A stretch of 64,000 bases of DNA from Anaerolineae bacterium. GTDB taxonomy: Bacteria; Chloroflexota; Anaerolineae; Fen-1058. Positions 1-19,225 of this stretch are shown here, piece by piece. Numbering within the stretch: the stretch's first letter is position 1; every line of letters begins with the position of its first letter. Position numbers and translations under genes: made by a program. The stretch covers positions 278-64,277 of the forward strand of contig DATEUJ010000022.1 in the NCBI GenBank assembly GCA_035283185.1, written 5' to 3'. The notes below the pieces were generated by a model, which saw only the letters and a list, made by a program, of their open reading frames with translations, did no database searches and was not told where the DNA came from.

Positions 1-2485
1 GCACGCCACAGGTCTGAAGGTTGAGGCCTTCGCTGGCCGACTCGGTGCCGATCAAGATTCGCACGCTGCCTTCGCGAAATTGGTTCTTCACGTCCTCTTT
101 GGTCGTGCGTACCCAGGCGATGCCATTCCAGACTTCGCCTCCGCGGCCAGAGTAGCATGCCACCTGGCTGCCATAAACTTCGACGAGCTGATCGCGCAGG
201 TAATCCATGGTGTCAGCATACTGGGTGAAGATCAGGACGGTCGGGCGCTGCGTGAAGATGCGCCCCAATTCGCTCTTTAAGACCTCGAGTTTCGAGTCGT
301 TGACGCTCAACAACCTGAGCTCGTGAATGAAGTCCTCGACGTAGGTCAATTCGGCCTTGAAGCGCTCCCGATCGGCGTCGCTCAATACCTCTTCGAGGAC
401 GTCCTGTTCGAGTTCGTCCTGTTCCAGATCGTCGTCGACGAAGGCTTCGTCCGTCAGGCCGCGCAGAAACTGCAAGCGGCGCTCCAGGCTGCGCCGCACG
501 GCGTAGAAACTGCTGGTCAGGCGACGGCGATAGACGGTCATCACGAAGCCCAGCCCGCGCCGCTCGCTCTCGTATTTCTGATAGAAGGCGCTGATGTACT
601 CGTCGATCCGATCGTACAACGCCCGTTCCTCAGGCCGCATCGGGACCCGTTCGAGGCGCGGGCGGCGCGTCGGGACGTTGTCTTTCAGGATGCCGCGCTG
701 CTGGTACTCGCGCAGCAGCGCGCGAGTGTTGCGGAAGATGTAGTGATTGAGCGGCGTGTGGCGGCGCGCTAACTCGGCGACGTGCGGCTCAGGCGCCCGG
801 CCCAACTGTCGCAGAATACGGAGCCGCTGGCCTGACCGCCGCACTAGATCTTCTAACGCCGACCACTTGACCGGGCCGATCTCCTGGCCGACGTGCGCCT
901 TGAACTCTGGATCGATTTCACCGCCGGTCGTCAGGTAGTCTTGCACAAGGTCGAAGACGAATTCCCAGTCCCGGTCGTCGAACGGCTTGTGCATCTCGGC
1001 GAAGAAGCCGAGGAAGTTGTCCTCGTCCGCGCCCCATCGCCCGCCCATGCCCAGCACGGTGAGCAAATCCCACACTTCGAGCGGATGGACCTGCATGGGT
1101 GTCGCCGTCATCAGCAGCAGGCCAGCATATTTGTCTTGTGCCTTCAGATCGTTGAGCAGGCCGAGCAGCCGATTCGGGCGATAGATGCGCTCCTTGAAGT
1201 CCTTGCGCCGGGCGTGGTGTGCCTCGTCCGCCACCAGCAGATCCCACCCTTTAGCGGCGAGGATTTGCTCGCGCCGATCGGCCCGCTTAACCAGTTGGCT
1301 ACCGGCGAGCAGCACGTCAAAGGCGTCCCACGGATTGCCGTCCGGCGCGGGCAAGGGCTGGTCGCGCACGTCGAGGAATCCGCCCGCCTCGTAGCGCGGG
1401 ATTTCGAGCGCGAACTTCTCGTAGAGTTCTTCCTGCCACTGCTTGAGCACCGACTTGGGCGCGAGGATCAGGCAGCGTTTCACCCGTCCCGACAGAAGCA
1501 ACTGGCGAATGACCAGGCCGGCCTCGATCGTCTTGCCCAGGCCGACCTCGTCGCACAGCATCGCGCGATCGGGGAAGCGCCGGATGACGACATTCGCCAC
1601 GCGCGACTGGTGCGGCCAGGGCACGATGGCCGCCGTCGCCGCGCCGAGCTCGGTCGCGTTGGGCAGGTAGGGCGCATCGCGCACGAACTGGAAAAGGATG
1701 CGCTCGGCTTGAGGGACCTCGCCGGCGTAGGGCTGCTCTTCATCCTTCGTCGGCTTGCGGGACGGCGCGCGTTCAAGTGGATCGAACTCCGGCGCGTGGG
1801 GCGGGCGGTAGGTCAGCAGACGATCGCGCACCGCTTTCGGAACGTCGAGTGCGATCCAACCCGGTTCCTGGCCCGTCCACAGCCGCTCAAAGTTGGTCGC
1901 GATTTGCGCCAGGTGCGCCTGTGTCGCCTCCCACGAAAAGACGACCAGGAAGTTCTCGTAGTTCTTCGTCCAGCCAGTTTCGGACTCGTTGACACTGCCG
2001 CTGAAGGCCATGCGATTGCCGTCGGCGTCCGTGAAAATGCCCGTTTTGGGGTGATAGTAGTCCTGCGACAGGCGCGCCGGGATCGGAAGACCTCGCTCAT
2101 CACGGGGCAGGACGACGCGGATTTCCAATGTGCCTTCGGCGACCATCCAGGCCAGCACTTCCAGTCGCTGGCGCAGCAGTGCATCCTGCGGATCGGCGAA
2201 ATGCTCCAGCAGGCGCTCGGTAAGACGCGCCTGCAGGTCGTGGCCTCTGGTGATGGCTTCGACATCGCCCTCGTCGAGCGCCGCGCCGACGAGCAGCCGC
2301 ATCCGGCCGCCGTTTTGAATCAGCCGCGCCACGCCGGCCGCGGCCACAGCAAGCGCAGTCGAGCTGAAGAAGCCGGCGCTGCGGTCGTACCGCACGCTGG
2401 CCGAGAGCGCCGGGATGTAGAAGTTGTTCAGCGGATCGTCGGCGGGGCCGTAATAGATGCGGAAGGGATAGTCGCGTAGTGACAT
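1..2485 (-). CDS. PLD-like nuclease domain fused to SNF2-family helicase (5' part only; gene runs off the left edge)
   Basis: Not in the ORF track because no stop lies in the window. Hand translation of the minus strand from ATG (cat 2483-2485) gives MSLRDYPFRIYYGPADDPLNNFYIPAL... and stays open to nt 1. PLD HxK(x)4D motif (YHPKTGIFTD, then SGSVNES), SNF2 motif I (CDEVGLGKTIEAG), motif II (VADEAHHARR). Plus-strand ORFs 323..772 and 893..2479 are antisense shadows. Confidence 0.85.
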   Translation of the reverse strand, partial: MSLRDYPFRIYYGPADDPLNNFYIPALSASVRYDRSAGFFSSTALAVAAAGVARLIQNGGRMRLLVGAALDEGDVEAITRGHDLQARLTERLLEHFADPQDALLRQRLEVLAWMVAEGTLEIRVVLPRDERGLPIPARLSQDYYHPKTGIFTDADGNRMAFSGSVNESETGWTKNYENFLVVFSWEATQAHLAQIATNFERLWTGQEPGWIALDVPKAVRDRLLTYRPPHAPEFDPLERAPSRKPTKDEEQPYAGEVPQAERILFQFVRDAPYLPNATELGAATAAIVPWPHQSRVANVVIRRFPDRAMLCDEVGLGKTIEAGLVIRQLLLSGRVKRCLILAPKSVLKQWQEELYEKFALEIPRYEAGGFLDVRDQPLPAPDGNPWDAFDVLLAGSQLVKRADRREQILAAKGWDLLVADEAHHARRKDFKERIYRPNRLLGLLNDLKAQDKYAGLLLMTATPMQVHPLEVWDLLTVLGMGGRWGADEDNFLGFFAEMHKPFDDRDWEFVFDLVQDYLTTGGEIDPEFKAHVGQEIGPVKWSALEDLVRRSGQRLRILRQLGRAPEPHVAELARRHTPLNHYIFRNTRALLREYQQRGILKDNVPTRRPRLERVPMRPEERALYDRIDEYISAFYQKYESERRGLGFVMTVYRRRLTSSFYAVRRSLERRLQFLRGLTDEAFVDDDLEQDELEQDVLEEVLSDADRERFKAELTYVEDFIHELRLLSVNDSKLEVLKSELGRIFTQRPTVLIFTQYADTMDYLRDQLVEVYGSQVACYSGRGGEVWNGIAWVRTTKEDVKNQFREGSVRILIGTESASEGLNLQTCGV

Positions 2486-2493
2486 AGCGATCC

Positions 2494-2583
2494 GTAGTCT
2501 AGCCGCTTCTCGGCGTCACGCACCAGACATAGCGACCCGTAGTCTAGCCGCTTGTCGGCGTCGCGCACAAGGCGCTATGCTAC
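2494..2583. repeat. REP family 1: two tandem GTAG-headed units, the second closed by an inverted unit ending CTAC
   Basis: gtagtctagccgcttctcggcgtc starts at 2494. gtagtctagccgcttgtcggcgtcgcgcacaaggcgctatgctac spans 2539-2583, and its arms are imperfect reverse complements. The region contains an approx 45-nt direct duplication (catagcga.ccgtagtctagccgctt...). Confidence 0.7.
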
Positions 2584-3065
2584 AAGAGTAATGGTGTCAG
2601 ATGGCCACTCCAGGGCCAGTCTTCTGCATGATCGACAAGCCCCTTTCGGACGGGATTATTCAAAATGTACTCGGCGATTTGTCGCAAGTCCTCCTCGACC
2701 CGGACAATATGATCATAGGAGCGCGGCTGCCACAATTTGCCGCGCCAGCCGTGCTGCCAACTGCGATTCGTCGTCTTTCCTTTGAACTGATCACTGAACA
2801 CCAGCACGGAGACGCCCTCTTGAACAGGGCCGACGAGATAATGCAGGTGATCGGGCATCAGGCAATACGTATACACCGCGCAATGCTGCCGTTCCTGCTC
2901 CTCGCGGAGGGTATCGACGATCATCTGATTGATAGACTCGTTTACGAAAGGAGCCGCGTGCAGGTAGGCGCGAATAGTGATGAAGGTGATCCGACCAACC
3001 TGCCGATACAACTCAGGGTCGAGCCGTTGATTACGCGGTGGATGATAGGGTTTATTCCATGGCAT
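2580..3065 (-). CDS. REP-associated tyrosine transposase (RAYT; IS200/IS605 Y1 HUH superfamily)
   Basis: MPWNKPYHPPRNQRL... HUH motif in CLMPDHLHYLV. C-terminal Tyr region RSYDHIV...IAEYILNNPVRKGLV. The ORF-track start at 3212 reads through REP copies (duplicated peptide VGVHGRAHTGHKAR), so ATG at 3065 is preferred. Confidence 0.8.
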   Translation of the reverse strand: MPWNKPYHPPRNQRLDPELYRQVGRITFITIRAYLHAAPFVNESINQMIVDTLREEQERQHCAVYTYCLMPDHLHYLVGPVQEGVSVLVFSDQFKGKTTNRSWQHGWRGKLWQPRSYDHIVRVEEDLRQIAEYILNNPVRKGLVDHAEDWPWSGHLTPLLL

Positions 3066-3074
3066 ACGTTCACC

Positions 3075-3318
3075 GTAGCATCGGGCCTTGTGCCCGGTAT
3101 GTGCCCGACCGTGCACGCCCACAAGGGGCGAGGCTACCGCGACCTCCCACGAATACGCCCACACGTACCATCGGGCCTTGTGCCCGGTATGTGCCCGACC
3201 GTGCACGCCCACAAGGGGCGAGGCTACTACGACTCGAATACGCTACCCGTAGCATCGGGCCTTGTGCCCGACTCCCACAAATACGCCACAAGAATACGCC
3301 CACAAGGGGCTAAGCTAC
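3075..3318. repeat. REP family 1: three consecutive REP doublets (REPIN-like)
   Basis: Units at 3075-3137, 3165-3227 and 3249-3318. Each is gta[gc]catcgggccttgtgcccg ... cgcccacaaggggc.a.gctac. The first two are near-identical 63-mers. Confidence 0.8.
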
Positions 3319-6287
3319 TCGTCTTCTTCGCCCTCTTCGCCCTCTTCCTCAAACCCCTCGCCGAGGCCGAGCTGCGCAGCGACTGCCAACTCCGGCTCCT
3401 CTTCGACCGGCGCTTGCAGATCGTCGAAGAAGGCCAGCCGCAGGTTCTCCAGCACCTCGGCTTCGGGACGGGCGAACTTGCCCTTGATGCGCGAGCGCGG
3501 GATGGCGTTGAGCAGCGCCTGCAGGCAGGCCTTGAATGCCCCGTCGGTCTTGAGGCCGGACTTCTTGAGGAACACGTCGCACGCACCCGCGCCGTCTTCC
3601 TCATACACCATCATCGCCGTGTGCACGGCGTCGATCAGGTGCTCGAACGTTGCGACTTCGTCGTCGACCACGCCCTTGCGCCGGCGCTGGACCGGCGTCT
3701 GCATCACGACGTACTGACCCTTCTTGGTGACCAGCCGATTAGTCTTCATCAGGTCTTTTTCGACATCAAGGCCGAGCGCGATGGCCAGCTTGCGCGCCTC
3801 GTCGTAAGGGAATTGCTCCGCGCCGAAGGCGTCCCAGGCCATGACGTACCAGTCGGTGATAGGATCGAACTGCACGTCGCGCCCCAGCAGCAGACCCTGC
3901 TTGCGCAGGCGGACGACTTCCTCGCGCGCCAGGTCGAGCGCGGTTTCCGGGCGCAGCGGCTTCGGTTGGCCGGTCTTGGGATCGACTTCGCTCGTCAGCA
4001 CCGGCCAGTGCTCGGAGATGATGCTGAGCGTCGGGCCGAAGACGCTGATGTACAGATCGACGCCGCTGATGCCCATCGCCGCGAACTCGGCGGCTTTCTG
4101 GCGAGCCGTCTCGCGGACGCGGGGCTGTAAGTCATCCCACCACACGGCAGTGGTCAGTGATGAGTGATCAGTGATCAGTTGTCCGCTGCCCACTGATGAC
4201 TGTCCACTGATCACTGGCAACTGTCTTTTTCGACACACCAGCAAAATCGTCGACGAGGCCGCATTCTTCTTGGCCTGATGCAGGCTAGTCTCGCTCTCAG
4301 TGTGGACCGGCCACGAGGCTTTGATGGCGAAGCCCGCGCCGATGAGCGCCGACGCCAGCGTGTCCCACGCCTCGACGCGCTTGTGCGTGAACATGACGGT
4401 GAGCGAACCGTCGGTCCGCAGGACGCGGTACATCTCGCAGAAGGCGGCGGCCATTTTGAACTCGTAGTCGCGTTCAGCCAATTCCTTTCTGCTACGCCCC
4501 ATGTCCTTAAACCGAGCGAAATTCGCGATTGCTTCGTCATCTTTGTTGGTCAACTCCTCACGGAAAAGACTGGGGAACACATTTCTAGCACCACGCTTGA
4601 GCCAGACGTAGAAGAAGTCAGAAAGCTCTGCGTACTGAACATTATCGTAGTACGGCGGATCAACACTAATGTTGGAAATCGAACGATCAGGTATTTCCAC
4701 AAGGCTAGAAGCTAAACCATGAAAGATGCGTAGTCGGTCTACAAGCTTCTCATGCCTTGCATACATCAAGGTCGTCTGCGCGGGCGATACCAGATCCGCG
4801 AGCCCTTTGTAAGCGTCTATTACTTGGTCGATTACCCAGGGAAACAAGCTACGTGCTGCATCGAACTCTGCGAAGGTCCATTTGACAGAGAAATCATGCC
4901 TCTGAAAGGTGTGCGCTATTACCTGACGAGATGCATGCCACACCACTTGAGTTGAGTTGTAGTCAAGAGCTTTATCAAATGCCAATGAGAGATAAGTGAC
5001 GATTGCTTGGGCGCGATCTTCATCGAGTGATGAGCAAGAGTCTTCTTCGATCTGGCGTAAGACACCGAGAGCGGTGCAGAAAGTAAAAAGCTGCCGTGGT
5101 GCGAATGAGTCTGCCCAAGTCTTAAGTCCATATATCTCAGCTGCCCAATCAGCTCGACCGGGCTGTCGCGGTTCGTTCGGAATCAAACCGGTTGCATCCC
5201 AACTTCGGCGGTTATGGGCAAGATCAGCTCTTGCCTGCTTTATTGCAGACACATCCTCTTCCGTCGGTGGACGGAAGTAAAGATCGCGCTTTTGCTTAAA
5301 GGCGACTGCATATAGCATTTGTCCCATGCGGCCGGCCTGCGCCTCGGCCTTGATGTAGTCACCGTCAATCGTCTCGCCCGTCCACGGCGAGCGGGCGACG
5401 CCGCGCGTGATTGTCCCGACATCTGGCTTGGCCGACTTCACCTTTGCACCGGCCACAATCTCAAATCTCGGCTCACTCATCCCGTCTTCAGCGATGAGTC
5501 GAACTGCGACCGGGTCGCTGCCTTTGCGCAGCCACCAGTTGGGGCTGAGCGGGACGGGCTTGCTGGTCGATGGGCAGGCGACGGTACGCGCCCACAGGTA
5601 GGCAAAGATACTCTCGCCGGAACGCTTGGGGAAATACGGATCGAGTTTCTCTTTGACACGCTTCGCCCACTCGTCGCCCCACTTGCGGATGTCCTCGGCG
5701 AGCGACGGGCCGAAGCGGGCCGGGTAATCGAGCGTGGCTTTGAGGATGACGGCGGCGACCGGGTTGAGGTCGTTGGCGATCGTCGTGAAGCCGTAGCGCA
5801 GCGCCTCGAAGGGGATCGATCCGCCGCCCGCGAACGGGTCGAGTACGCTCAGTTCGCGCGTGCCCCACGTATGCTCCAGCAGATCGCCCATCGTCAGCAG
5901 GTCTTCGGCGGAGGGATTGATGGTGAAGGCGCGAGGGTAACCGTATGGGCCACCTTTCAGCGTCACATCTTGCGCTCGCGCCCATTCAAGCAATTTGCGC
6001 GAAGCAACTGGATCGCCACGAATGCCGAGAAGTTGTGAAACCCACTGATGATAGATGTCAGCCGAAGGGAACTTCTCGCGCAGTTGAGCTGGCCACTCGC
6101 TCGACCAAACAGGTAGGACTCCGCCTAAAATCGCGGCGCGGCAAATCAACAAGGGCCGACGTGCCCACCATACGTGAAGACGATTCGGGGCAGGAAAAGG
6201 CGTGCCGTAGCCATGTTCGCGACGTGACTCAACGCCGATGGCCTCGATGGGCAGCCAGTGTTCGATGAGGAGGGAGGGAAGGGCCAT
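3315..6287 (-). CDS. DUF1156-type DNA methyltransferase (N6-adenine/N4-cytosine class, DPPY motif)
   Basis: N-terminus LIEHWLPIEAIGVESRRE...HVWWARRPLLICRAAILG is typical of DUF1156. SAM motif LDPFAGGGSIPFEALRYG. Catalytic motif NISVDPPYYDNVQY. 990 aa. Confidence 0.85.
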   Translation of the reverse strand: MALPSLLIEHWLPIEAIGVESRREHGYGTPFPAPNRLHVWWARRPLLICRAAILGGVLPVWSSEWPAQLREKFPSADIYHQWVSQLLGIRGDPVASRKLLEWARAQDVTLKGGPYGYPRAFTINPSAEDLLTMGDLLEHTWGTRELSVLDPFAGGGSIPFEALRYGFTTIANDLNPVAAVILKATLDYPARFGPSLAEDIRKWGDEWAKRVKEKLDPYFPKRSGESIFAYLWARTVACPSTSKPVPLSPNWWLRKGSDPVAVRLIAEDGMSEPRFEIVAGAKVKSAKPDVGTITRGVARSPWTGETIDGDYIKAEAQAGRMGQMLYAVAFKQKRDLYFRPPTEEDVSAIKQARADLAHNRRSWDATGLIPNEPRQPGRADWAAEIYGLKTWADSFAPRQLFTFCTALGVLRQIEEDSCSSLDEDRAQAIVTYLSLAFDKALDYNSTQVVWHASRQVIAHTFQRHDFSVKWTFAEFDAARSLFPWVIDQVIDAYKGLADLVSPAQTTLMYARHEKLVDRLRIFHGLASSLVEIPDRSISNISVDPPYYDNVQYAELSDFFYVWLKRGARNVFPSLFREELTNKDDEAIANFARFKDMGRSRKELAERDYEFKMAAAFCEMYRVLRTDGSLTVMFTHKRVEAWDTLASALIGAGFAIKASWPVHTESETSLHQAKKNAASSTILLVCRKRQLPVISGQSSVGSGQLITDHSSLTTAVWWDDLQPRVRETARQKAAEFAAMGISGVDLYISVFGPTLSIISEHWPVLTSEVDPKTGQPKPLRPETALDLAREEVVRLRKQGLLLGRDVQFDPITDWYVMAWDAFGAEQFPYDEARKLAIALGLDVEKDLMKTNRLVTKKGQYVVMQTPVQRRRKGVVDDEVATFEHLIDAVHTAMMVYEEDGAGACDVFLKKSGLKTDGAFKACLQALLNAIPRSRIKGKFARPEAEVLENLRLAFFDDLQAPVEEEPELAVAAQLGLGEGFEEEGEEGEEDE
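4152..4217. repeat. Heptamer-repeat hairpin (cagtgat word) embedded in frame in the methylase CDS
   Basis: ggtcagtgatgagtgatcagtgatcag ttgtccgctgccc actgatgactgtccactgatcactgg. Translated as ...PVISGQSSVGSGQLITDHSSLTT... Confidence 0.8.
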
Positions 6288-6374
6288 TTTTGATTTCGGG
6301 CGCTGGATTCGATGTCAGGTGACAGGACGCCGAAAACGGCGTATAATCCTTTGCGAGAGGCGGCCAACTGAAAA

Positions 6375-6581
6375 ATGAGCGCCCCGATCATGACGCTTGA
6401 ACAAATCCGCGTAACCGGTCTCGCGGCGCTGATGGAAAAACTCGGCCCCGATGGAATGATCCGTTTCCTGCAGCAGTTTGAAACCGGCGCCGGCGATTAT
6501 TCCACTGAGCGTCACCAATGGGTCGACCGCTGGGACATCGACACGCTCATCGCCGAACTCGGCAAGCGTCAATCGCACTGA
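6375..6581 (+). CDS. Small hypothetical protein encoded opposite to the surrounding operon
   Basis: 68 aa, MSAPIMTLEQIRVTGLAALMEKLGPDGMIRFLQQFETGAGDYSTERHQW... A stem-loop plus T-run lies 20 nt downstream. Family not recognised with confidence. Confidence 0.45.
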   Translation: MSAPIMTLEQIRVTGLAALMEKLGPDGMIRFLQQFETGAGDYSTERHQWVDRWDIDTLIAELGKRQSH

Positions 6582-6601
6582 CCCATTCGCCGGAATCGCG
6601 C

Positions 6602-6639
6602 AGACCTGACGAGCCTGGCAAATCCGTCGGGTCTTTTTT
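6602..6639 (+). terminator. Rho-independent terminator candidate for the small plus-strand ORF
   Basis: agacctgacg (6602-6611) pairs with cgtcgggtct (6625-6634) at 9 of 10 positions, with a 13-nt loop, followed by tttttt. The T-run overlaps the stop codon of the ASCH gene on the other strand. Confidence 0.55.
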
Positions 6640-7564
6640 ACTCTCCCGCCAACAACACCCTCAACGCCTTCTGCGCCCGCTCGGCTGTTGGCCCTGTGGT
6701 GCACTTGCTATACCAGTAGTAGGCTTCCTCGCTCGTCATCGCCCGCACGCCGTCGGAGATCGCCTCGACGCGGCTCATCTTGCTGATCGGCTTGATAGCC
6801 AGGAACAGCAGCCCCAATCGCACACCGGTTTCTTCGTTCAGCAGGAACGGTGCGCGACGGCTGGCGCTCAAGTCAGTCGCCTTGTAGCCGCAGCGGCGCA
6901 GCGCCTCCAGGATGTGATCGGCCACCGCGCGCAGCACGCCACCGCCTACCTTGACGACGCGCTGCATCTCTCGTGGAGGCTCTTGTCGGTACAGTGTGCG
7001 CTGCGCGCCTGGCGGCTCGACCAATCGCTGATACAGCGCCAGGCCATAGGCCGTCGAATGACCGGCGCGATTCGCATTCGGCACGACGCGCAGCTCGAAC
7101 GGCCGCTCAGGGTCCCAGGCAAAAGCTGGCTCGACGGTGGGAGCCGCCGGTTCCGGTTCCGGCGCAGCGCCATTCTTGCCAGACAGCCAGTCGTCCGGCA
7201 CGCTGAACAGACCCATCCGGCCGCGCATTGGTCGCGGCTGCGGCAGCGGGTGCGCGTTCGCCAGTCGCCAGCCGTACAGCGGCGGCTTAAAGCGCTCGCG
7301 GTCGAGGTGCTCGTCTTGCAACGCATCAAACGTCGCCTCGTCCAGCTCTTCGACGTCGACCAGATCGACCGTGCCGACGATCGCGCCGGTCGTGACGGCA
7401 TCGGGATCGATGTCGTGCGCCAGGCAGGCTTCGCGCTCGACCGTCTGCGCGGCGTGGATCGCCAGCGGCCCGCGATAGTTGACGGTCCACGAGCGCAGCT
7501 CGATCGTCTTCTTGCCCTGCAGGATCAGGTCTGCCCAGGGTTGGCGGATGCTAATCGCTTTCAT
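6638..7564 (-). CDS. ASCH (PUA-like) domain protein with approx 190-aa C-terminal domain in the position usually held by DUF3780
   Basis: MKAISIRQPWADLILQGKKTIELRSWTVNYRGPLAIHAA matches the ASCH signature. C-terminal part ...LGLLFLAIKPISKMSRVEAISDGVRAMTSEEAYYWYSK. The DUF3780 assignment is inferred from gene position and length only. Confidence 0.7.
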   Translation of the reverse strand: MKAISIRQPWADLILQGKKTIELRSWTVNYRGPLAIHAAQTVEREACLAHDIDPDAVTTGAIVGTVDLVDVEELDEATFDALQDEHLDRERFKPPLYGWRLANAHPLPQPRPMRGRMGLFSVPDDWLSGKNGAAPEPEPAAPTVEPAFAWDPERPFELRVVPNANRAGHSTAYGLALYQRLVEPPGAQRTLYRQEPPREMQRVVKVGGGVLRAVADHILEALRRCGYKATDLSASRRAPFLLNEETGVRLGLLFLAIKPISKMSRVEAISDGVRAMTSEEAYYWYSKCTTGPTAERAQKALRVLLAGE

Positions 7565-7568
7565 GGAT

Positions 7569-7624
7569 GTAGTCTAGCCCCTTGTGGGCGTCGGGCACAA
7601 GGCGGGCACAAGGCCCTAAGCTAC
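7569..7624. repeat. REP family 1 doublet filling the DUF499-ASCH intergenic gap
   Basis: gtagtctagccccttgtgggcg tcgggcacaagg cgggcacaaggccctaagctac. Contains the DUF499 stop codon (cta 7616-7618). Confidence 0.8.
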
Positions 7625-10600
7625 ATGGGGCACGGCCTCAATTACTACTTTGCCCACTCCCAGCGTCACTAATACATCGCGTATCGTCTGGAATTGCTGG
7701 CCGTCGACTTCCAGGCCATCTTCGAACTCGGCCCCGACCCGCATCGTCACGCGCAGCTCGTCGGCTTCCTGGCCGAAGGACTCGGCCACGCTCTTCAAGC
7801 GCTTGTAGCGATCCCAGCCGCCCTTGAACTCCTGCCGGAACGATTCAGCGTTCGCTCCGCTGCCAAATGCAGCAATAACCTCCAGCTCAACGCCGTAGCG
7901 ACCCTTGCCGAATTGCGGAACCGCCAGCCCGATCGCGCGCAGCTCGCCGGCGGCCTGCTTGCCGGCGCCTTCGATCCGTATAAACACCTGGCGCAGCCGG
8001 GCGATGCCATACTCCTGACACTCGTCGACGATTTTCTGGAAGGCCTGCGCGACTGCGCCCTGACCTTGCAGCTTGGCCGGTATGGTACGCCTGCCAGGGA
8101 CCTCGACGCCGCAAATACATTGATCTTCAGGCCGGCCGCATACCGGGCAGGTCGCCAGGCTGGTCGCAGTCTTGCCGCCCTCGACAGGCGGCTGCCACTT
8201 GCCCTTGATGCGAATTTGCAGGCGGGCCGCTTCCTCCGGCACGTACAGGATCGCGTCTTCGCCGATGCGCCAGTGTTGCGGTGGGGTATCTTTGTCGTAG
8301 CCGAACTGCTCGCCGGCATCATAATACACCCAAACGCCCGTCTGCACACCGTTCTGGATCGTCTTGCGCAACTGCCCGATGTCCAGCAGGATACGCAGGC
8401 CGATCTTGCGGGCGAACGCCTTGCGCAGATCGTCCGTCGTCATGGACTGCTGGTTCTGATCCCACGCCTTCGACTTGACGTACGCGGCCGACAGCAGGTC
8501 ATCGTCGGCTGTCAACACCTTCTTCAGCGCCCGCAACACACGCAACACGACGTTGGTCTGATCTTTCTCGACGTCGCCCTGATCCTGCGCCGGCAGCGTC
8601 TCGCGCCGGAGATACGCCTGCGACTTAGGCGCATCCGAGGTCGGGTAGTACAGGTAGCGATAAGCCTTGGTGATCGCCACGCGGACGTCCAGCTCAGCCG
8701 ACTCTTGCATCTTCTTCAGGGCCTTCTTCTGCTCGTCGTTGAACTCGGCCAATCGGCTGGCGTCGCCGACGATGCGCCCGATCGCCAGGTAGCGCCGGGC
8801 GACGTTCACCATGTTGTCGACCTGATCGCCGTCGGCGACGAGGAACAGCACGTTGTTCTGATACGTCCGGAAGGACTCCATCGCGCCGGTGTACTCGTAG
8901 ATGCGTCGCACGAGATCGGGCGGAGCCGCTTCTGCCGCGCCAACCTTGACCGCTTCGAAGTGCATGATCGCCAGCTTGGGCAGGTCGGCATCGTCGTCCA
9001 CATCGTCCGGCTCGACCGGGAAGTATACCGGCCTGAAGTAGCCCTTCTTCCAGATTTGCTTGATGCGATCCTCGATCTCGGCTTTCGCCTTGCTCAACCC
9101 GACGTGGCCTGTCTCGTCGGCGATGATCTTGTTGAGCGACGGCTCCGTCTTGAAGCGATAGCGATGCCCGTCGTACTCCAGGAACCACGCCTGGTCGTAC
9201 AGCCGCTCGAGCGCGCGCGACACCACGGCGGGATCGTCGCCACCGCCCGACTCGTCGGGTTCGAGCACCGCCAGCATCAGGTCGGCCGGATCGACACCGC
9301 TGGCGATGCCCTGCGTCAGGCTGTGCAAGAACATCGTCGTCGCCAGTCGCCGAGCATATGGAGGCTTGCCGGAAGCGACCAGCGGCTGATCGACCTCCTG
9401 CGCGTGAGCCAACGTCCCGCGCTTTGGACTGACGATGTCGGCTTCGACGACCTGCTTGAACAGGGGACGATCCAGCCGGCTGGTCAAATCCTCCGCGATT
9501 TGCGACTGCGCGAGATCCAGGTGATGTGGATGGATCAGCCACGCCCCATCTGGCTTGCTCTGCCACAGTGCCCGGATCGTCCAGGCCAGCAGGCGCAGCG
9601 CCCCTCGCGTGCGGTTGAAGTTGGGAATCGTCGAGGTCTTGCGATCGAGCACCGTCAGCAGCTCGGGATGGAACGGATAGGCGGTCTGCATCTCGCGTGC
9701 GTACTCGGCGCGGGCAGCGCGCTGCGGCAGATCGGCGCTCTTTTCGAGAAGGCCGCGGTAGTATTGCGCGTACGCGTCGAGCACCGGCTGGGCGGCCTTC
9801 CGGTCGATCGATTTGAACAAGCGGTGCGTCACGATCGCCGGAATCTCGCCCTCGTCGGTTGGCGTCAGCACGCGCTCCTGCCGCGCCGATACCTTCAGCG
9901 CCTCTGCAAGGCTTTGGCGAAGCGAATCTGTCTCTTTGGCAAAGGCATCCGCCTGGCCGGCCAGCGTCAGCACGACCAGGCAGCGTTCTTTGCTGGCCGC
10001 GAATTCCATCAGCGACATGAGGAACGCAACCGTCTGGTCGGCCAGCGTCGATTTCTTGGTCGCCGTCGGGACGGCCAACCCCGCGCGTAAGTGGCGCGCA
10101 ACCTCGTCGAGCATGATCAGCGCCGGCTTGTCACCGACCAACGCCTCGAACAGGCCCGTACCCGGCGCCGACCTGTTTTCTTCGCTCTCCTTGGCCAGCG
10201 CGTAACCGGCACGCCCGCCAAGCTGATAGGCGATCTCGCCCCACAGCGTGTAGGTCTTGACCTTGTCTTCCGGATGATCGATGCCGACAGACTGATCCAG
10301 ATCCGATCCCACGACGCCGGCAATCACAATGTCGCCAGGCTGTGGCAGTTTGGTCTGCTTTCCAAGGATGTTCGACAGCGCCTTTGCCGGCGTGTTGCCG
10401 CTTACAACGTGATACAGAGCAATCAGGTTGTGAGTCTTGCCGCCGCCGAATGCGGTCTCCAAACGAATGACCGCGTTCTTGCCCGCCGCCTTTCCGATCA
10501 AGCGGCCGAGCGCGTCATTCAGCAGAGTCTTCAGTCCGGCGGTGGGATACGTGTTCTCAAAGAAGGTGACCGGATCGCCGTAGACGGGATCGGCCTTGTC

Positions 10601-10699
10601 GTCGAGCACGTCCTTCAAGCGCGCCGCGAAGATATCTTCGCGCAGTTCGCCCTTGAGGACTTCGTCGCGGGGGATACAGAGGTCGAATACGGATTGCAT
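7616..10699 (-). CDS. DUF499-like (COG1483-type) large ATPase
   Basis: MQSVFDLCIPRDEVLKGELRE... with P-loop-like ETAFGGGKTHNLIALYH. C-terminal Zn-ribbon-like CPVCGRPEDQCICG. The ORF-track start at 10816 runs through a REP element, so ATG at 10699 is preferred. Confidence 0.8.
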   Translation of the reverse strand: MQSVFDLCIPRDEVLKGELREDIFAARLKDVLDDKADPVYGDPVTFFENTYPTAGLKTLLNDALGRLIGKAAGKNAVIRLETAFGGGKTHNLIALYHVVSGNTPAKALSNILGKQTKLPQPGDIVIAGVVGSDLDQSVGIDHPEDKVKTYTLWGEIAYQLGGRAGYALAKESEENRSAPGTGLFEALVGDKPALIMLDEVARHLRAGLAVPTATKKSTLADQTVAFLMSLMEFAASKERCLVVLTLAGQADAFAKETDSLRQSLAEALKVSARQERVLTPTDEGEIPAIVTHRLFKSIDRKAAQPVLDAYAQYYRGLLEKSADLPQRAARAEYAREMQTAYPFHPELLTVLDRKTSTIPNFNRTRGALRLLAWTIRALWQSKPDGAWLIHPHHLDLAQSQIAEDLTSRLDRPLFKQVVEADIVSPKRGTLAHAQEVDQPLVASGKPPYARRLATTMFLHSLTQGIASGVDPADLMLAVLEPDESGGGDDPAVVSRALERLYDQAWFLEYDGHRYRFKTEPSLNKIIADETGHVGLSKAKAEIEDRIKQIWKKGYFRPVYFPVEPDDVDDDADLPKLAIMHFEAVKVGAAEAAPPDLVRRIYEYTGAMESFRTYQNNVLFLVADGDQVDNMVNVARRYLAIGRIVGDASRLAEFNDEQKKALKKMQESAELDVRVAITKAYRYLYYPTSDAPKSQAYLRRETLPAQDQGDVEKDQTNVVLRVLRALKKVLTADDDLLSAAYVKSKAWDQNQQSMTTDDLRKAFARKIGLRILLDIGQLRKTIQNGVQTGVWVYYDAGEQFGYDKDTPPQHWRIGEDAILYVPEEAARLQIRIKGKWQPPVEGGKTATSLATCPVCGRPEDQCICGVEVPGRRTIPAKLQGQGAVAQAFQKIVDECQEYGIARLRQVFIRIEGAGKQAAGELRAIGLAVPQFGKGRYGVELEVIAAFGSGANAESFRQEFKGGWDRYKRLKSVAESFGQEADELRVTMRVGAEFEDGLEVDGQQFQTIRDVLVTLGVGKVVIEAVPHVA

Positions 10700-10767
10700 A
10701 AAGGCCGTGCCACCTGATCGAGTCGCGGCGAGTAATGCTAGTAGTCGACCAAGAGGAAAATGATGGG

Positions 10768-10830
10768 TAGCCCAGCCCCTCGTGGGCGTCATGAACGGGC
10801 ACAAGAACGGGCACAAGGCCCTATACTACA
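10768..10830. repeat. REP family 1 doublet upstream of the DUF499 gene
   Basis: gtagcccagcccctcgtgggcg tcatgaacgggcacaagaa cgggcacaaggccctatactac. Confidence 0.75.
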
Positions 10831-10935
10831 CCCATCAAAACCAGTTTGGCGGACTACTGGTGTTAAGTTTAGCACAACTTATGCGCACTGCGCCAATTCA
10901 GGCAAGCCGCCAATACGAAGTCCGCAGGACTGACC

Positions 10936-11026: not shown

Positions 11027-11296
11027 TCATCGCCGCGACTTCGGGCAGCGCTCACGCACGCCCTCCCACCGTCCATTCGCCCAGGCAATGCGCGCGTCGA
11101 TGCGCCGCACCCACCACAAATGCAGGGTGCTGATGTCGCCTTTGCGCACAGACTTCTCGGCGATTTCGGGATTCAGGCGGATCAACGCCGCGCGCAAGTG
11201 CGGCTCGACCAGCGTGTCGCTCTCGGCGCGCGGGAGTTGCTCCCTGGGGATGTACTGCCAATCAGACGATGACAATGTGCTCGGGAGGCTGCACAT
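11027..11296 (-). pseudogene. Remnant resembling the N-terminal region of a type I restriction R subunit (HsdR_N)
   Basis: SDWQYIPREQLPRAESDTLVEPHLRAALIRLNPEIAE resembles the conserved HsdR N-terminal ...LNP... region. Only about 35 aa are similar and no helicase domains follow. Confidence 0.35.
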
Positions 11297-11801
11297 CGGG
11301 CAAGGGCGCGTCGCGATAAGGGGCAGGCAGATCGTCCCTCATCGTCTGCCACCGCTCACGAATCGCGCCTTGCTGAGTGGCCCAGTGCCGGATCAAGGGC
11401 TGGTCGAAGGTCGCGATGTAATCCATGCCCAGGATCGTGCCGCTTTCGTTTGTCCCGAATGTGCCGAGCGCCAAAACGGCCGCATCTTCGGGCGTGAAGC
11501 CAAAGTCGCGCAGGCGGCGCGACCAGCGTGTGAAGTACCGGGCAGGCAGTGCGACCTGCATGCGGTCGCGAAGCAGGCGGATGATGCCGCCGTAGCGCGG
11601 CAACACTTCCAGCCGGCTCAGCGTGTGCACAGTAGGCGGCACGATGAATAGCTCGATGGAATGCGAACCGGCACGATAGAACAAATCGAGGGCAAACAAC
11701 TCGTCGTCGCCGAGATCGCGCCCTTCGGCCAGTTTGAGCAGGCCTTCGAGGATGCGACGTGCGGTGACTTTATCGAGCAGACAGCGTGTCCGATCGGACA
11801 T
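11262..11801 (-). CDS. Hypothetical protein, possible degenerate PIN-like toxin
   Basis: 179 aa. Its start overlaps the stop of the upstream 119-aa ORF by 32 nt. Acidic residues lie in CLLDK, FTPEDAAVLALG and IATFDQ. Weak assignment. Confidence 0.5.
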   Translation of the reverse strand: MSDRTRCLLDKVTARRILEGLLKLAEGRDLGDDELFALDLFYRAGSHSIELFIVPPTVHTLSRLEVLPRYGGIIRLLRDRMQVALPARYFTRWSRRLRDFGFTPEDAAVLALGTFGTNESGTILGMDYIATFDQPLIRHWATQQGAIRERWQTMRDDLPAPYRDAPLPDVQPPEHIVIV

Positions 11802-12129
11802 CGCGTTCCTCGGCTTCGATCCAGGTTGCGTCGATCGGCGTTTCCCAGAGTCGGGCGCGCTCCTCGTCTGGCAGGGCGAGGTACTGGTCGAGCGTCAAAT
11901 CACCGAGGAACGGATCGGTCGAGGAGAGAGCCTGTCCGGCGAGGGCCTGTTGCACGTCGGCGCGGACACTGGCGGCGCTGGTGCGCGCCTCGTCCAGGGT
12001 GCGCGGTGCGAATTGGCGCAGTTCGGGCACCAAGTCGAGCAAGCGCTTTCGTTCAGCGGGCGGCATTTGCCGGATCGCCGCCGCGATCTGCTCAACGCTG
12101 ACGGGTAACGAGACAACCGATTGGCTCAT
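11770..12129 (-). CDS. Hypothetical protein, possible antitoxin partner
   Basis: 119 aa, MSQSVVSLPVSVEQIAAAIRQMPPAERKRLLDLVPELRQ... Overlaps the downstream ORF. Confidence 0.5.
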   Translation of the reverse strand: MSQSVVSLPVSVEQIAAAIRQMPPAERKRLLDLVPELRQFAPRTLDEARTSAASVRADVQQALAGQALSSTDPFLGDLTLDQYLALPDEERARLWETPIDATWIEAEERDVRSDTLSAR

Positions 12130-12374: not shown

Positions 12375-13481
12375 ATGCATCGACGGGAATTTTGCCGAAG
12401 GGTGGCCATGGCCGGCGGGAGCTTGATGCTTGCGCCGCTGATCGAGGCCTGCGCCCGGTCAGAGGTGACACTCACCCGATCAGAGCCTACGGCGACTGCA
12501 ACGCCTGTCTCGCCCGCGACGCCGCACCCAACCACTGCCCCGACTCCAACGGTGATGCCGCAGCCAACAGAGGAGGCGACCATGGCAAACATTGCCCTGG
12601 TCAAGACTGAGGATCGCGCCGATGGCGTGCGCCAGGCGATCGAATTGCTTGGTCTCAACCCGGCGCGCGGCAAGCGCGTGCTGCTCAAGCCGAATCTTAA
12701 CAGCGCCGACGAAGCACCTGGCTCGACACACTCTGATATTCTGCGCGCACTCGTCGTCAAGCTGAGCGATATGGGTGCGCGGGCCGTCAGCGTGGCCGAC
12801 CGAAGTGGCATGGGCGACACGCGCACGGTGATGCAGCGAAAGGGCGTACTCGAGCTGGCGGACGAGTTAGGGTTCACCGCTGTGGTGCTCGACGAGCTGG
12901 AAGAGAGGGACTGGGTCATACGCCAGTCGAAAGACACGCATTGGCCGCGCGGCTACGCCGTGCCCAGGCTGCTGCTCGACGCCGAGTGTGTGGTGCAGAC
13001 CTGCAACCTGAAGACGCATCGCTTCGGCGGACACTTTACGCTGTCGCTCAAGAACTCGGTCGGCTTCGCGGCCAAAACGGTGAACGGCAGCGGCTACGAC
13101 TACATGCACGAGCTGCACAGCTCGCCCTATCAACGACAGATGATTGCCGAGATCAACACAGCCTACACGCCAGCGCTGATCGTGATGGACGGCGTGGAGG
13201 CCTTTGTGGACGGCGGGCCGGACCGGGGCAAGAAGGTGAAATCCGAAGTCGTGCTGGCGGGCACGGATCGCATTGCCATGGACGCCGTCGGCGTGGCCAT
13301 CCTTCGCCTGTTCGGCACGACGCGCGAGGTCAGCCTGGGCGGGGTATTTGAGCAGGCGCAGATCGCACGGGCGGTGGAGTTGGGCCTGGGCGTGGATTCG
13401 CCGGCGCGGATCGCCATCGCCACAGGCGACGCGGAGAGTGAAGTCTACGCGCAGCAAATCAGGGAAGTGTTGATGCGATGA
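12375..13481 (+). CDS. DUF362 domain protein with twin-arginine-like signal and Pro/Thr-rich linker
   Basis: MHRREFCRRVAMAGGSLMLAP..., then IALVKTEDRADGVRQAIELLG...VLLKPNLNSADEAPGSTHSD...TCNLKTHRFGG. Confidence 0.75.
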   Translation: MHRREFCRRVAMAGGSLMLAPLIEACARSEVTLTRSEPTATATPVSPATPHPTTAPTPTVMPQPTEEATMANIALVKTEDRADGVRQAIELLGLNPARGKRVLLKPNLNSADEAPGSTHSDILRALVVKLSDMGARAVSVADRSGMGDTRTVMQRKGVLELADELGFTAVVLDELEERDWVIRQSKDTHWPRGYAVPRLLLDAECVVQTCNLKTHRFGGHFTLSLKNSVGFAAKTVNGSGYDYMHELHSSPYQRQMIAEINTAYTPALIVMDGVEAFVDGGPDRGKKVKSEVVLAGTDRIAMDAVGVAILRLFGTTREVSLGGVFEQAQIARAVELGLGVDSPARIAIATGDAESEVYAQQIREVLMR

Positions 13482-13563
13482 TGATATTGACGAATACACA
13501 TAAAATAGCTATGGTATACACATCGTTCCGAACGGCGTTTTTCCTTTGCGACAGGAGGCGGGC

Positions 13564-13770
13564 ATGCGCACGAACATCGTGATCGACGGCAAGTTGATAG
13601 AGCAGGCGATGAAGGCGACCGGCTTGAAGACCAAACGCGCCGTCGTCGAAGCCGGCCTGAAACTACTCATTCAGGTGAAAGCCCAGACCGGCATACGAAA
13701 TCTACGCGGCAAGGTCAAATGGGAAGGCAGTCTCGATGAAATGCGCGCCAGTCGCGTTGGGGAGAACTGA
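13564..13770 (+). CDS. vapB: VapB-type antitoxin
   Basis: MRTNIVIDGKLIEQAMKATGLKTKRAVVEAGLKLLIQ. AGGAGG lies 7 nt upstream of ATG 13564. Directly precedes a PIN gene. Confidence 0.8.
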   Translation: MRTNIVIDGKLIEQAMKATGLKTKRAVVEAGLKLLIQVKAQTGIRNLRGKVKWEGSLDEMRASRVGEN

Positions 13771-13772
13771 AC

Positions 13773-14168
13773 TTGGTCATCGTCGATACGACCGTTTGGA
13801 TCGACTACCTGAATGGAATTTCGACGTCGCAGGCCGACTGGTTGGACACGGAGCTGGCGCGCCAACGCCTGGGGCTGACGGACCTGATCCTGTGCGAAGT
13901 CCTGCAAGGTGTGCGTGATGAGCGGCAGGCCACGCAGACCCGTCACGAGTTGTTGAAGTTTGAGGTGTTCGAGACGGGCGGCGTTCAGTTGGCGATCACC
14001 GCTGCGCAGAACTACCGCAGGCTGCGCGCGCGAGGGCGCATCGTGCGCAAGACGGTGGATTGCCTGATCGCCACATTCTGCTTGGTGAACGATCATGCTC
14101 TACTGCACAATGACCGGGATTATGACCCCTTTGAAGAATTTCTGAGCCTGCGCGTCATTCACCCCTGA
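13773..14168 (+). CDS. vapC: PIN-domain toxin VapC
   Basis: (TTG start) VIVDTTVWIDYLNG...DLILCEVLQG...VDCLIATFCLVNDHALLHNDRDYD. Confidence 0.85.
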   Translation: MVIVDTTVWIDYLNGISTSQADWLDTELARQRLGLTDLILCEVLQGVRDERQATQTRHELLKFEVFETGGVQLAITAAQNYRRLRARGRIVRKTVDCLIATFCLVNDHALLHNDRDYDPFEEFLSLRVIHP

Positions 14169-14246: not shown

Positions 14247-14936
14247 ATGCCTGGCTGGATCTCCACTGGAACGTGCGCGCTGTGCCGCGAAGACTTCGGC
14301 AAGGCCGCCATGACCCGTCACTTGGTCAAGTGTCGGGCCGAGCATACCCCCGGCAAAGGCAAGTTCCGCAAAACCTTTCACTTGAAGGTGGAAGGGCGCT
14401 ACCTGCCCGAATACTGGCTGCACATCGAAATCCCCGCCGAGGCGACGCTCAGAACGCTCGACGCCTTCCTGCGCGACATCTGGCTGGAATGCTGCGGCCA
14501 CCTCAGCGCGTTCACCATCGAAAATGAACAGTACGAACTGAACACCGGCGGCGTGGATGCCATGTGGCCCATGATTTTCGGCCGAGGGGCGCCGCCGAAG
14601 AGCATGAACATCCGGTTAGACGCAGTGCTGCGCCCCGGCCTGAAGTTCTTTCACGAGTACGATTTCGGCACGACGACGCACCTGGCCTTGCGTGTGATGG
14701 CCGAGCAGGAGGGCGTCATTTCCCGAAACGCCGTCAGGATATTGGCCCGCAATCATCCCCTGCCGATCCCGTGCGAGAAATGCGGCGCGCCGGCCACCGA
14801 AGTTTGCGCACAGTGCATTTACAATGGGCGAGGCTGGGTGTGCGCGCGCCACGCTCGCACGCACAAATGCGGCGAGGACATGCTGCTGCCCGTCGTCAAT
14901 TCGCCGCGCGTGGGCATGTGTGGGTACACGGGCTAG
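14247..14936 (+). CDS. Hypothetical Cys-rich protein, possibly pRiA4b ORF-3-like fold with zinc-finger tails
   Basis: FHLKVEGRYLPEYWLHIEIPAEATLRTLDAFLRDIWLECCGHLSAFTI. C-terminal CEKCGAPATEVCAQC...CARHARTHKC. Confidence 0.5.
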   Translation: MPGWISTGTCALCREDFGKAAMTRHLVKCRAEHTPGKGKFRKTFHLKVEGRYLPEYWLHIEIPAEATLRTLDAFLRDIWLECCGHLSAFTIENEQYELNTGGVDAMWPMIFGRGAPPKSMNIRLDAVLRPGLKFFHEYDFGTTTHLALRVMAEQEGVISRNAVRILARNHPLPIPCEKCGAPATEVCAQCIYNGRGWVCARHARTHKCGEDMLLPVVNSPRVGMCGYTG

Positions 14937-15506: not shown

Positions 15507-15944
15507 CTACACCAGCGTGTCGGGCCACGCCTCTAACCCGACACGCTGCGCGGCATCCCACAACGGGCGGTCGAAGGTCGCCAGGGTCACAGGCTCGCCG
15601 ACAATTTGCCGCCATTGGAGCCCACAGGCCAGATGCACAGCATCATAACCACGCAAGCCGTGCTCCCACGCCAGTGCATCTGCCTGCGCCACGACGGCTT
15701 CATTGACCTCCACATGCAGCAGGTCGGGCCATTGGCGGCGAAACACCTCAAGTGCAGCACCAGCTTCCTCGCGAGTTAGTGCTTTAAGGCGAACCGCCTT
15801 ACTGAAGGCGGCGGCCACCTCGGCTCGGGCGATCAACGCCGTTCCAAGGGCATCCGCCCGGCTGGCGAGAACTGTCGTTTCATCGGAGCCGCTTTCTCGG
15901 GTGTACAGCTTTACCAAAGCGCTGGAGTCCAAATACAGGATCAT
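15507..15944 (-). CDS. vapC: PIN-domain toxin VapC
   Basis: MILYLDSSALVKLYTRE...YDAVHLACGL...LATFDRPL. 4-nt overlap with the upstream antitoxin gene. Confidence 0.85.
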   Translation of the reverse strand: MILYLDSSALVKLYTRESGSDETTVLASRADALGTALIARAEVAAAFSKAVRLKALTREEAGAALEVFRRQWPDLLHVEVNEAVVAQADALAWEHGLRGYDAVHLACGLQWRQIVGEPVTLATFDRPLWDAAQRVGLEAWPDTLV

Positions 15945-16216
15945 TCACGATCCTCGATCAGCAGGTCAGCCACCGTGCGCGGACCACGCGTCTTTGCCAC
16001 GGGCTTCTCAGGCTTCAGCTTTGTACCGCTCCATTGTGCCAGGCCGGCTTTGACCATGGCCTGCAGCCGCTCGTCCAAGGAGCTGGATGCGGGGACGATG
16101 CGCCCAACCGTTTTGCCGTGCTCGGTGATGACGATCGTCTGCCCGGCCTTCACCTGCCGGAGGTATTCGCTTAGACGGGTCTTGAGTTCCCGCACACCGA
16201 CACTTAATTCGCTCAC
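15941..16216 (-). CDS. Phd/YefM-family antitoxin
   Basis: (GTG) SELSVGVRELKTRLSEYLRQVKAGQTIVITEHGKTVGRIVP. The start is chosen by homology-style reasoning and is uncertain. Confidence 0.75.
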   Translation of the reverse strand: MSELSVGVRELKTRLSEYLRQVKAGQTIVITEHGKTVGRIVPASSSLDERLQAMVKAGLAQWSGTKLKPEKPVAKTRGPRTVADLLIEDRE

Positions 16217-16440
16217 GCGCTCCTCCTGTCTGCACCGCTGAACATCTCTCGGGTCTGCGACCACATTATACACGATGTGGACACATGCTGCAATCCTTCG
16301 GGCGCCGGCCGCCTCGATGCGACGCCTGCCAGCTACGTTCGAGAGGCTTAGGATGAGAATTCATGAGGTCGCTCTGAAACTCGGAACAACCTCGGAACGG
16401 TTGCGGAAATTCTAGCCCAACCTGGCCCCTATAATTCGGT

Positions 16441-19158: not shown

Positions 19159-19192
19159 AAAGGCGGCCCCCTCGCCGGAGGGCCGCCTTTTT
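19159..19192. terminator. Strong GC stem-loop flanked by A-run and T-run (bidirectional terminator candidate, downstream of tRNA-Val)
   Basis: aaaggcggccccctc gccg gagggccgccttttt. Confidence 0.6.
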
Positions 19193-19225
19193 GCGATCGG
19201 CTAGCGTGCGTTCTGAAATGAAGAG

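Follow-up and report, generated by a model that had tools for sequence, protein, structure and literature searches.

The window analysed here is a stretch of 64,000 nucleotides (nt) from an Anaerolineae bacterium (assembly GCA_035283185.1, contig DATEUJ010000022.1). Its positions 1-10816 are filled, on the minus strand, by four long reading frames encoding a DUF499 ATPase (gene A), a small ASCH-DUF7680 protein (gene B), a DUF1156 methylase (gene C) and a PLD-SNF2 helicase-nuclease (gene D). By analogy with characterized systems, we consider it probable that this locus is a DUF499-centred system related to bacteriophage exclusion (BREX), with the type 2 (Gao_RL/MANTIS) architecture and a MANTIS-like mechanism, and that it represents a divergent lineage in which a DUF7680 protein serves as the small subunit, with a TRIP4-like ASCH domain joined to it in the present locus. 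All parts of the locus are present and intact and their linkage is conserved. The catalytic motifs are preserved in all four genes, and the gene order given in a first-pass annotation of this DNA agrees with the coordinates of the open reading frames (ORFs) and with their motifs. The locus region is base-for-base identical to three metagenome contigs, and in the window together with one contig (L001) all four reading frames are full length, the end of the helicase gene being read from that contig. The kind of system is already known, from phage defence by Gao_RL, from the 2026 classification of BREX-related type 2 systems and from the mechanism described for MANTIS.

Known DUF499-centred systems

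DUF499-centred BREX-related systems have been divided into types 1 to 3 (PMC12839542, NAR 2026). Type 1, which corresponds to Hma, consists of three genes and has a helicase with a C-terminal nuclease of the restriction-endonuclease fold. Type 2 consists of four genes, with a small DUF3780 protein after the ATPase and an N-terminal HKD nuclease on the helicase, and a subset of these systems has ASCH/PUA or RAMA domains joined to the small protein; PglZ is found in type 3 (PMC12839542).

Gao_RL (type 2; PADLOC GAO_29) provides phage defence and was renamed MANTIS in a preprint of September 2026 (bioRxiv 10.64898/2026.09.23.753747). In MANTIS, the methylase MtsC hemimethylates an asymmetric 6-bp site, for which it requires MtsA and MtsB: the AAA+ protein MtsA loads MtsC onto DNA and dimeric MtsB stimulates methylation, with the specificity being set by the target-recognition domain of the methylase (bioRxiv 10.64898/2026.09.23.753747). 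For restriction, none of the four proteins and neither of the two ATPase activities can be dispensed with, and the effect is greatest between unmodified sites in inverted orientation; MtsD forms a dimer that resembles SauUSI and has one PLD active site (bioRxiv 10.64898/2026.09.23.753747). The view of the first-pass annotation that such a gene set has no established mechanism is thus out of date. The restriction-modification-like logic that it proposed, with the methylase marking self and the PLD-helicase as the effector, has since been demonstrated for the homologous MANTIS/Gao_RL system (bioRxiv 10.64898/2026.09.23.753747).

Genes A, C and D and their relationship to known systems

Gene A (7616..10699, minus strand) encodes an MtsA/HmaC-like DUF499 AAA+ ATPase of the ORC/Cdc6 type, 1027 amino acids (aa) in length, with a Walker A motif GGGKTH at aa 85, a Walker B motif LIMLDE at aa 194 and a zinc ribbon (CPVCG...CICG, aa 851-864) that is followed by a C-terminal domain. 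The frame is open to 10816 (TTG), and the ATG at 10699, which fits the homologues and the called gene, is the likely start; the N-terminal extension of the frame is spurious because it is a translated repetitive extragenic palindromic (REP) hairpin upstream of the start. The protein matches Pfam DUF499 (PF04465) with 134 bits. Its best PADLOC match is HmaC (343 bits), the GAO_29-type DUF499 model scoring 189 bits.

The product of gene C (3315..6287, minus strand) is 990 aa long and is an MtsC/HmaB-like DUF1156 N6-adenine DNA methyltransferase. WWARRP is found at its aa 40, and motifs I and IV, FAGGG and DPPY, are located at aa 152 and aa 543, respectively, separated by ~390 aa that presumably form the target-recognition region; the C-terminal tail is acidic. 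The protein matches Pfam DUF1156 (PF06634), and among the PADLOC models HmaB is best (278 bits), with DUF1156_MTase at 138 bits. Searches of PDB sequences with the ATPase and with the methylase returned no matches. The methylase is called among the contigs as a protein of either 883 aa or 990 aa; a frameshift was rejected as the cause, since the DNA is identical and only the gene calling differs. Between contig L002 and the window there are 10 substitutions, all of which lie in a 117-nt segment in the methylase C-terminal region (window 4014-4130; methylase nt 2158-2274). Only one of them changes an amino acid (S741G), the other nine being synonymous, and the two sequences are otherwise identical over 17.5 kb; this clustering suggests a short recombination tract.

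Gene D (1..2485, minus strand) encodes an MtsD-like protein that combines a PLD/HKD nuclease with an SNF2-type SF2 helicase. It starts at 2485, and the window holds the first 828 of its 1252 aa, the window edge removing the last 424. The 3' end, which had been noted as missing, was recovered from the identical contig L001 (15080-18838), where the full protein of 1252 aa includes Helicase_C, motif VI (QRIGRIDRIGQ) at aa 843 and a C-terminal region of ~370 aa. In the PLD domain (nt 1856-2485), HPK occupies aa 145-147 and GSVNES lies at aa 163; helicase motifs I, II and III are GLGKT, DEAH and TATP, at aa 315, 420 and 460, respectively. The PLD motif had been written as HxK(x)4D; the actual sequence is HPKTGIFTD...GSVNES, with five residues between HxK and D. 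H145, K147 and GSxNE align with the canonical MtsD of annotated Gao_RL loci, residue for residue in the PLD motif region, and the canonical MtsD proteins likewise lack the classical D of the PLD motif. Pfam matches are PLDc_2, SNF2-rel_dom, ResIII and Helicase_C. In PADLOC, PbeA matches over the PLD part, followed by PLD_Helicase (173 bits), BrxH and HmaA (143 bits), the match to HmaA being over the helicase core. A search of PDB sequences with the helicase found only RapA and SNF2 remodellers, and the full 1252-aa protein has no Pfam match to PD-(D/E)xK NOV_C/DUF3883. The original assignments of DUF499, DUF1156 and PLD with SNF2 are therefore upheld by the profile searches in Pfam, PADLOC and NCBIfam, and the anti-phage-associated DUF499, DUF1156 and PLD models of NCBIfam, which were built on Gao_RL, are the top matches for genes A, C and D.

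We compared the three large proteins with the canonical Gao_RL loci of Acinetobacter baumannii (L086) and Mesorhizobium (L087), with the type 1 HEPN-DUF499 locus of Thermus (L088) and with three plasmid loci that have a DUF7680 second gene (L084, L085 and L089). The ATPase scored 411-621 bits against the DUF7680-type loci, 258 bits against Thermus type 1 and 135-171 bits against Gao_RL (25-27% identity). The corresponding values were 427-587, 254 and 113-159 bits for the methylase, and 388-582, 135 and 187-208 bits for the helicase. From these bit scores, we conclude that the locus belongs to a DUF7680-bearing lineage that comprises bacteria and archaea.

The locus resembles MANTIS in having four co-directional genes in the same order, which encode a DUF499 ATPase, a small alpha+beta protein, a DUF1156 methylase and an SF2 helicase with an N-terminal HKD/PLD nuclease; the methylase has the FxGxG and DPPY motifs, and the catalytic region of the PLD nuclease can be aligned. 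It differs from MANTIS in its second gene, which is DUF7680 with ASCH and not DUF3780, and in the presence of REP elements and a REP-associated tyrosine transposase (RAYT) inside the operon. Furthermore, an MtsR-like Arc/CopG repressor was looked for upstream of the operon and was not found. The locus is not a strict member of MANTIS/Gao_RL, from which it is set apart by the second gene and by the scores against the equivalog models.

The relationship to Hma deserves consideration, since HmaC and HmaB are the best PADLOC matches of the ATPase and the methylase, and since both proteins are more similar to those of Thermus type 1 than to those of Gao_RL. In an Hma-like (BREX-related type 1) system, the helicase-nuclease alone would protect in an abortive-infection-like manner, by nicking, and the ATPase and methylase would be accessory, without a MANTIS-style loading of the methylase; HmaA alone indeed protected E. 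coli from T4 (PMC11232893). We consider this unlikely for the present locus, as the helicase has an N-terminal PLD nuclease and shows no Pfam match, over its full length, to the C-terminal PD-(D/E)xK/NOV_C nuclease on which defence by HmaA depends, HmaA itself combining a C-terminal PD-(D/E)xK nuclease with an N-terminal TUDOR domain. Moreover, Hma is a three-gene system without a small second gene, whereas the locus has a conserved DUF7680 gene in that position. Given this difference in effector architecture, the locus is not a member of Hma. The tentative identification with Hma in the first-pass annotation thus holds for the profiles that score best on the ATPase and the methylase, but not for the architecture, which is that of a four-gene system with an N-terminal PLD nuclease.

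Type 3 BREX (BrxC, PglXI and BrxHII) and BREX-related type 3 have a homologous ATPase-methylase-helicase core (PMC12839542), and BrxH models match the helicase, but the effector here is a PLD nuclease. Neither PglZ nor an inactive STAND/BrxB-like gene was found among the called genes and Pfam matches of the locus and its flanks, and BREX proper was rejected because PglZ is absent. DISARM was likewise rejected because DrmA and DrmB are absent; the DrmD-type matches are partial and confined to the helicase core, and there is no DUF1998 gene. In SauUSI and the Type III and Type ISP enzymes, too, an ATP-driven SF2 motor is combined with a nuclease, of the PLD or another type, and the expected dependence on site orientation goes back to the analogy with such enzymes made in the MANTIS paper (bioRxiv 10.64898/2026.09.23.753747). 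These enzymes are autonomous, whereas in the present locus recognition would be expected to come from a separate methylase/ATPase complex.

The ASCH-DUF7680 protein

Gene B (6638..7564, minus strand) occupies the position of MtsB and encodes an ASCH-DUF7680 fusion of 308 aa. The N-terminal ASCH domain, which is PUA-like and of the TRIP4/TTHA0113 type, covers aa 1-125 (nt 7190-7564; Pfam ASCH aa 4-92) and is connected by a low-complexity linker to a C-terminal Pfam DUF7680 domain (aa 156-307, nt 6644-7099, 124 bits). The ASCH domain is predicted with confidence, with a predicted local distance difference test (pLDDT) value of ~90, and is closest to crystal structures of TRIP4 ASCH with double-stranded DNA (dsDNA) and to Thermus TTHA0113. 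A Foldseek search with the model of the whole protein gave matches through the ASCH domain only, the DUF7680 part being modelled at low confidence, and a PDB search with an ASCH-DUF7680 profile also gave only ASCH matches. No match to the DUF3780 models of Pfam, PADLOC or NCBIfam was found, and no PADLOC or NCBIfam model of any kind matches the protein. Its earlier description as ASCH-DUF3780-like is imprecise, since Pfam assigns the C-terminal domain to DUF7680, which bears only a borderline resemblance to DUF3780.

Homology between DUF7680 and DUF3780 is likely but unproven, judging from profile and model comparisons. Profile-profile alignment with hhalign brought both families into a single register across 136 columns with a weak score of 20 (P = 0.028), a score that was reached by 3 of 200 column-shuffled controls. 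The motifs GxRLxxLxxA, EExxW(Y/L)YSK and KAL are common to both families and lie in register. In reciprocal hidden Markov model (HMM) searches of ~6,700 sequences, each family was enriched among the best sub-threshold matches of the other (E 0.1-10). The AlphaFold models have the same predicted order of secondary structure elements, namely three strands, two helices, a possible fourth strand and four helices, but are of low confidence in this part (pLDDT ~40-55); the DUF3780 model in PMC12839542 is likewise of low confidence, with a score of 0.5. The two families share the same operon position and are similar in size.

A search of 1.84 billion representative proteins yielded 366 DUF7680 clusters at E ≤ 0.001, giving a family size of ~366 clusters as counted at 50% identity. 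The majority of DUF7680 proteins, ~140-160 aa in length, are standalone and lack ASCH, and ASCH-fused DUF7680 was found in roughly 20 clusters, those closest to gene B. As most DUF7680 proteins stand alone yet occupy the same operon position, the ASCH domain is an add-on to DUF7680. In these sequence clusters, the ASCH fusions appear as a branch centred on Chloroflexota within the DUF7680 family. No mention of DUF7680 was found in the literature searched. Identity among the canonical DUF3780/MtsB proteins (P0121-P0240) is 73-89%, with hosts that include Escherichia, Acinetobacter, Bacillus and Desulfosporosinus, and such unusual uniformity in distant hosts would imply a recent horizontal spread of the canonical MANTIS cassette.

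The ASCH domain also allows for a different role of gene B, in which it would not be the counterpart of MtsB but a modified-base reader that steers the PLD-helicase to modified foreign DNA, in a type IV-like restriction. In its favour, ASCH is PUA-like and a function in reading modified bases has often been suggested for such folds (PMC12839542), the structure of MtsD closely resembles that of the modification-dependent SauUSI (bioRxiv 10.64898/2026.09.23.753747), and the homology with DUF3780 is unproven. We nevertheless regard this role as very improbable, because DUF7680 mostly takes up the same operon position without any ASCH domain, because the closest ASCH structures bind ordinary dsDNA, and because the cognate methylase in the operon favours restriction of unmodified DNA.

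Conservation in related loci

A search of 185,579 species genomes with a profile of gene B identified 544 encoding places, the best 79 of which (L005-L083) were examined. The order of ATPase, DUF7680 protein, methylase and PLD-helicase on one strand is kept in these 79 loci wherever the contig is long enough, which bears out the linkage of the four families that had been assumed, and in every related locus examined the gene after that of the ATPase encodes DUF7680. The hosts are nearly all Chloroflexota (Anaerolineae, Thermoflexales and Ardenticatenales), with a few Planctomycetota, in which DUF7680 is standalone. The same gene order also occurs on plasmids of Aminobacter (L085), Leptolyngbya (L084) and Haloplanus (L089), with a standalone DUF7680 gene in second position.

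In the related loci, the gap between the ATPase gene and the DUF7680 gene is tight (median 33 nt). The gap between the DUF7680 and methylase genes has a median of 1.7 kb and a maximum of 6 kb, and that between the methylase and helicase genes a median of 0.7 kb and a maximum of 4.6 kb; both usually hold cargo, most of it on the operon strand. This cargo includes AAA_21/AAA_15 ATPases (8 ORFs), GmrSD_N (7), DUF4276, NYN, Schlafen AlbA_2, HNH, NB-ARC/TPR and PIN proteins, Y1 transposases (three times) and, in at least 8 loci, a recurrent ORF of ~570 aa directly 3' of gene B. The gaps between the genes are insertion hotspots in these operons. Hma operons have been described as a "defence gene insertion hotspot" (PMC11232893), which the cargo found here matches, and the cargo also agrees with the auxiliary effectors described in PMC12839542.

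Passenger elements and integrity of the operon

In the window, the gap between the methylase and helicase genes holds an intact RAYT of 161 aa (2580..3065, minus strand, from ATG 3065) with the HUH motif HLH, which matches Y1_Tnp in Pfam and NF047646 with 97.5 bits (cutoff 80). Upstream of it, directly after the methylase stop codon, lies an array of three REP hairpins (3064..3320), and from the RAYT stop to the helicase start there are REP-like repeats in the form of two 45-nt copies and an inverted arm (2481..2583). Two further REP hairpins are located at the junction of genes A and B, where the hairpin overlaps the ATPase stop codon (7571..7630; REP match 7603-7624), and just upstream of the ATPase start codon (10765..10835; REP match 10808-10829). 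The same REP is found once more in the window (48101-48122), and shuffled sequence gave zero matches. The RAYTs in the equivalent gaps of loci L048 and L058 are distantly related (30-34% identity). The gap between genes B and C contains an antisense ORF of 68 aa (6375..6581, plus strand) with a sigma-70-like promoter at 6319-6347 (11/12 matches) and a terminator-like hairpin at 6613-6632. No family matched this ORF; its relatives also lie in intergenic gaps, in L006 (75% identity, same place), L038 and L048. The RAYT with its REP arrays, the REP copies at the other junctions and the antisense ORF were omitted from the gene list of the first-pass annotation. They are passengers and not components of the system.

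The helicase gene is intact in L001. In contigs L002 and L004, which come from independent assemblies, it has a shared junction after helicase nt 2623 that results in a truncated product of 882 aa, and the contigs end ~140 nt later; the divergent parts (L002:17702-17841 and L004:12178-12327) lie just beyond the window start. The shared junction suggests that the effector gene carries a mobile element insertion in a fraction of the population. Together with the RAYT and REP arrays that split the methylase from the helicase and the REP copies at two other junctions, this junction could indicate a decaying or switched-off locus, in which REP/RAYT invasion accompanies loss of the effector and the leftover orphan methylation module would have an epigenetic role or none. 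Such decay is improbable, however, in view of the four full-length frames with intact motifs in the window and L001. REP elements are, moreover, normally intergenic and do not disrupt genes, and in most of the related loci the corresponding gaps accommodate cargo of kilobase size.

Assignment and proposed mechanism

Several points weigh against our assignment of the locus to a divergent type 2 lineage with a MANTIS-like mechanism. The homology of DUF7680 with DUF3780 is not established, in view of the P value of 0.028, the 3 of 200 shuffled controls, the E values of 0.1-10 and the low-confidence models. Identity of the three large proteins to their canonical Gao_RL counterparts is only 23-27%, and the ATPase and methylase are nearer to Thermus type 1 (258 and 254 bits) than to Gao_RL (113-171 bits). 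The scores against NF042962, NF042963 and NF042964 (256, 193 and 279 bits, respectively, that of NF042962 being for gene A) miss the equivalog cutoffs of 1200, 1000 and 1100 by a wide margin. Gene D is ~330 aa longer at the C-terminus than canonical MtsD, and two further assemblies from this population have an interrupted helicase gene. In addition, cleavage by MtsD has not been reconstituted in vitro even for MANTIS (bioRxiv 10.64898/2026.09.23.753747). The three alternatives discussed above, an Hma-like system, a decaying locus and a modified-base reader, all have some support but fit the data less well than a divergent type 2 system.

It is conceivable, although we do not favour it, that the systems with a DUF7680 second gene are an independent sister lineage of MANTIS, in which the ATPase and methylase are nearer to Hma and the effector is a type 2 PLD-helicase. 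In that case, the ASCH fusion would be a natural experiment that points to the role of the MtsB-type subunit, namely direct DNA contact or the reading of the modification state during methylase activation.

For the type 2 assignment, a MANTIS-like mechanism is proposed because of the homology of the proteins encoded by genes A, C and D and the position of gene B. By this analogy, the DUF499 AAA+ ATPase would bind ATP and load the monomeric DUF1156 methylase onto a short asymmetric site. The ASCH-DUF7680 protein, anchored to the DNA through its ASCH domain, would stimulate methyl transfer, resulting in host sites that are hemimethylated at N6-adenine, and hydrolysis of ATP by the ATPase would allow turnover. 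On incoming DNA, the same assembly of the ATPase, the ASCH-DUF7680 protein and the methylase would find unmodified sites and recruit or activate a dimer of the helicase-nuclease. This dimer is expected to translocate with ATP and to cut by a single PLD active site at the dimer interface, most efficiently between inverted unmodified sites. The contribution of the fused ASCH domain would most likely be an added contact of subunit B with dsDNA or with a modified base.

Genomic surroundings

Three small ORFs upstream of the ATPase gene (11027-12129) are not conserved in related loci and were for that reason rejected as parts of the system. One of them, an ORF of 89 aa just upstream of the ATPase gene (11027-11296, minus strand), contains LHLWWVRR, which weakly resembles the N-terminal motif of DUF1156 (E = 2.8e-4, 21.4 bits, under the Pfam cutoff of 24); it may be what is left of another DUF1156 gene, or the resemblance may be due to chance. 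The other two, overlapping ORFs of 119 aa and 179 aa at 11262-12129, have no family match. The flank further contains genes for a DUF362 protein (12375-13481), a VapB/PIN pair (13546-14168), a pRiA4b ORF-3-like protein (14247-14936), a PhdYeFM/PIN pair (15507-16273) and a Fic protein (16776-17957), in agreement with the toxin-antitoxin-rich setting described before. A tRNA-Val(GAC) gene is located at 19225-19299, and an adjoining ORF of 367 aa (within 18012-19299) has weak matches to a phage-integrase N-terminal SAM-like domain. The combination of the tRNA-Val gene, the integrase-like ORF, Fic, the toxin-antitoxin pairs and the defence operon suggests a genomic island that is located at a tRNA gene and covers positions 1 to ~19300 of the window.

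Significance of the divergent lineage

The locus documents a divergent lineage of DUF499-centred systems that is widespread in Chloroflexota and that is mislabelled or missed by standard defence profiles, its second gene having no model in PADLOC or NCBIfam. It also indicates that the small subunit of these systems exists as a second Pfam family, DUF7680. The gaps in the operon act as landing pads, for REP elements and a RAYT in the present locus and for other defence genes in its relatives. The only element able to teach something new is the ASCH-DUF7680 subunit. The mechanism of MtsB is listed as unresolved by the authors of the MANTIS study (bioRxiv 10.64898/2026.09.23.753747), and the ASCH-DUF7680 protein may help to explain how an MtsB-type subunit works.

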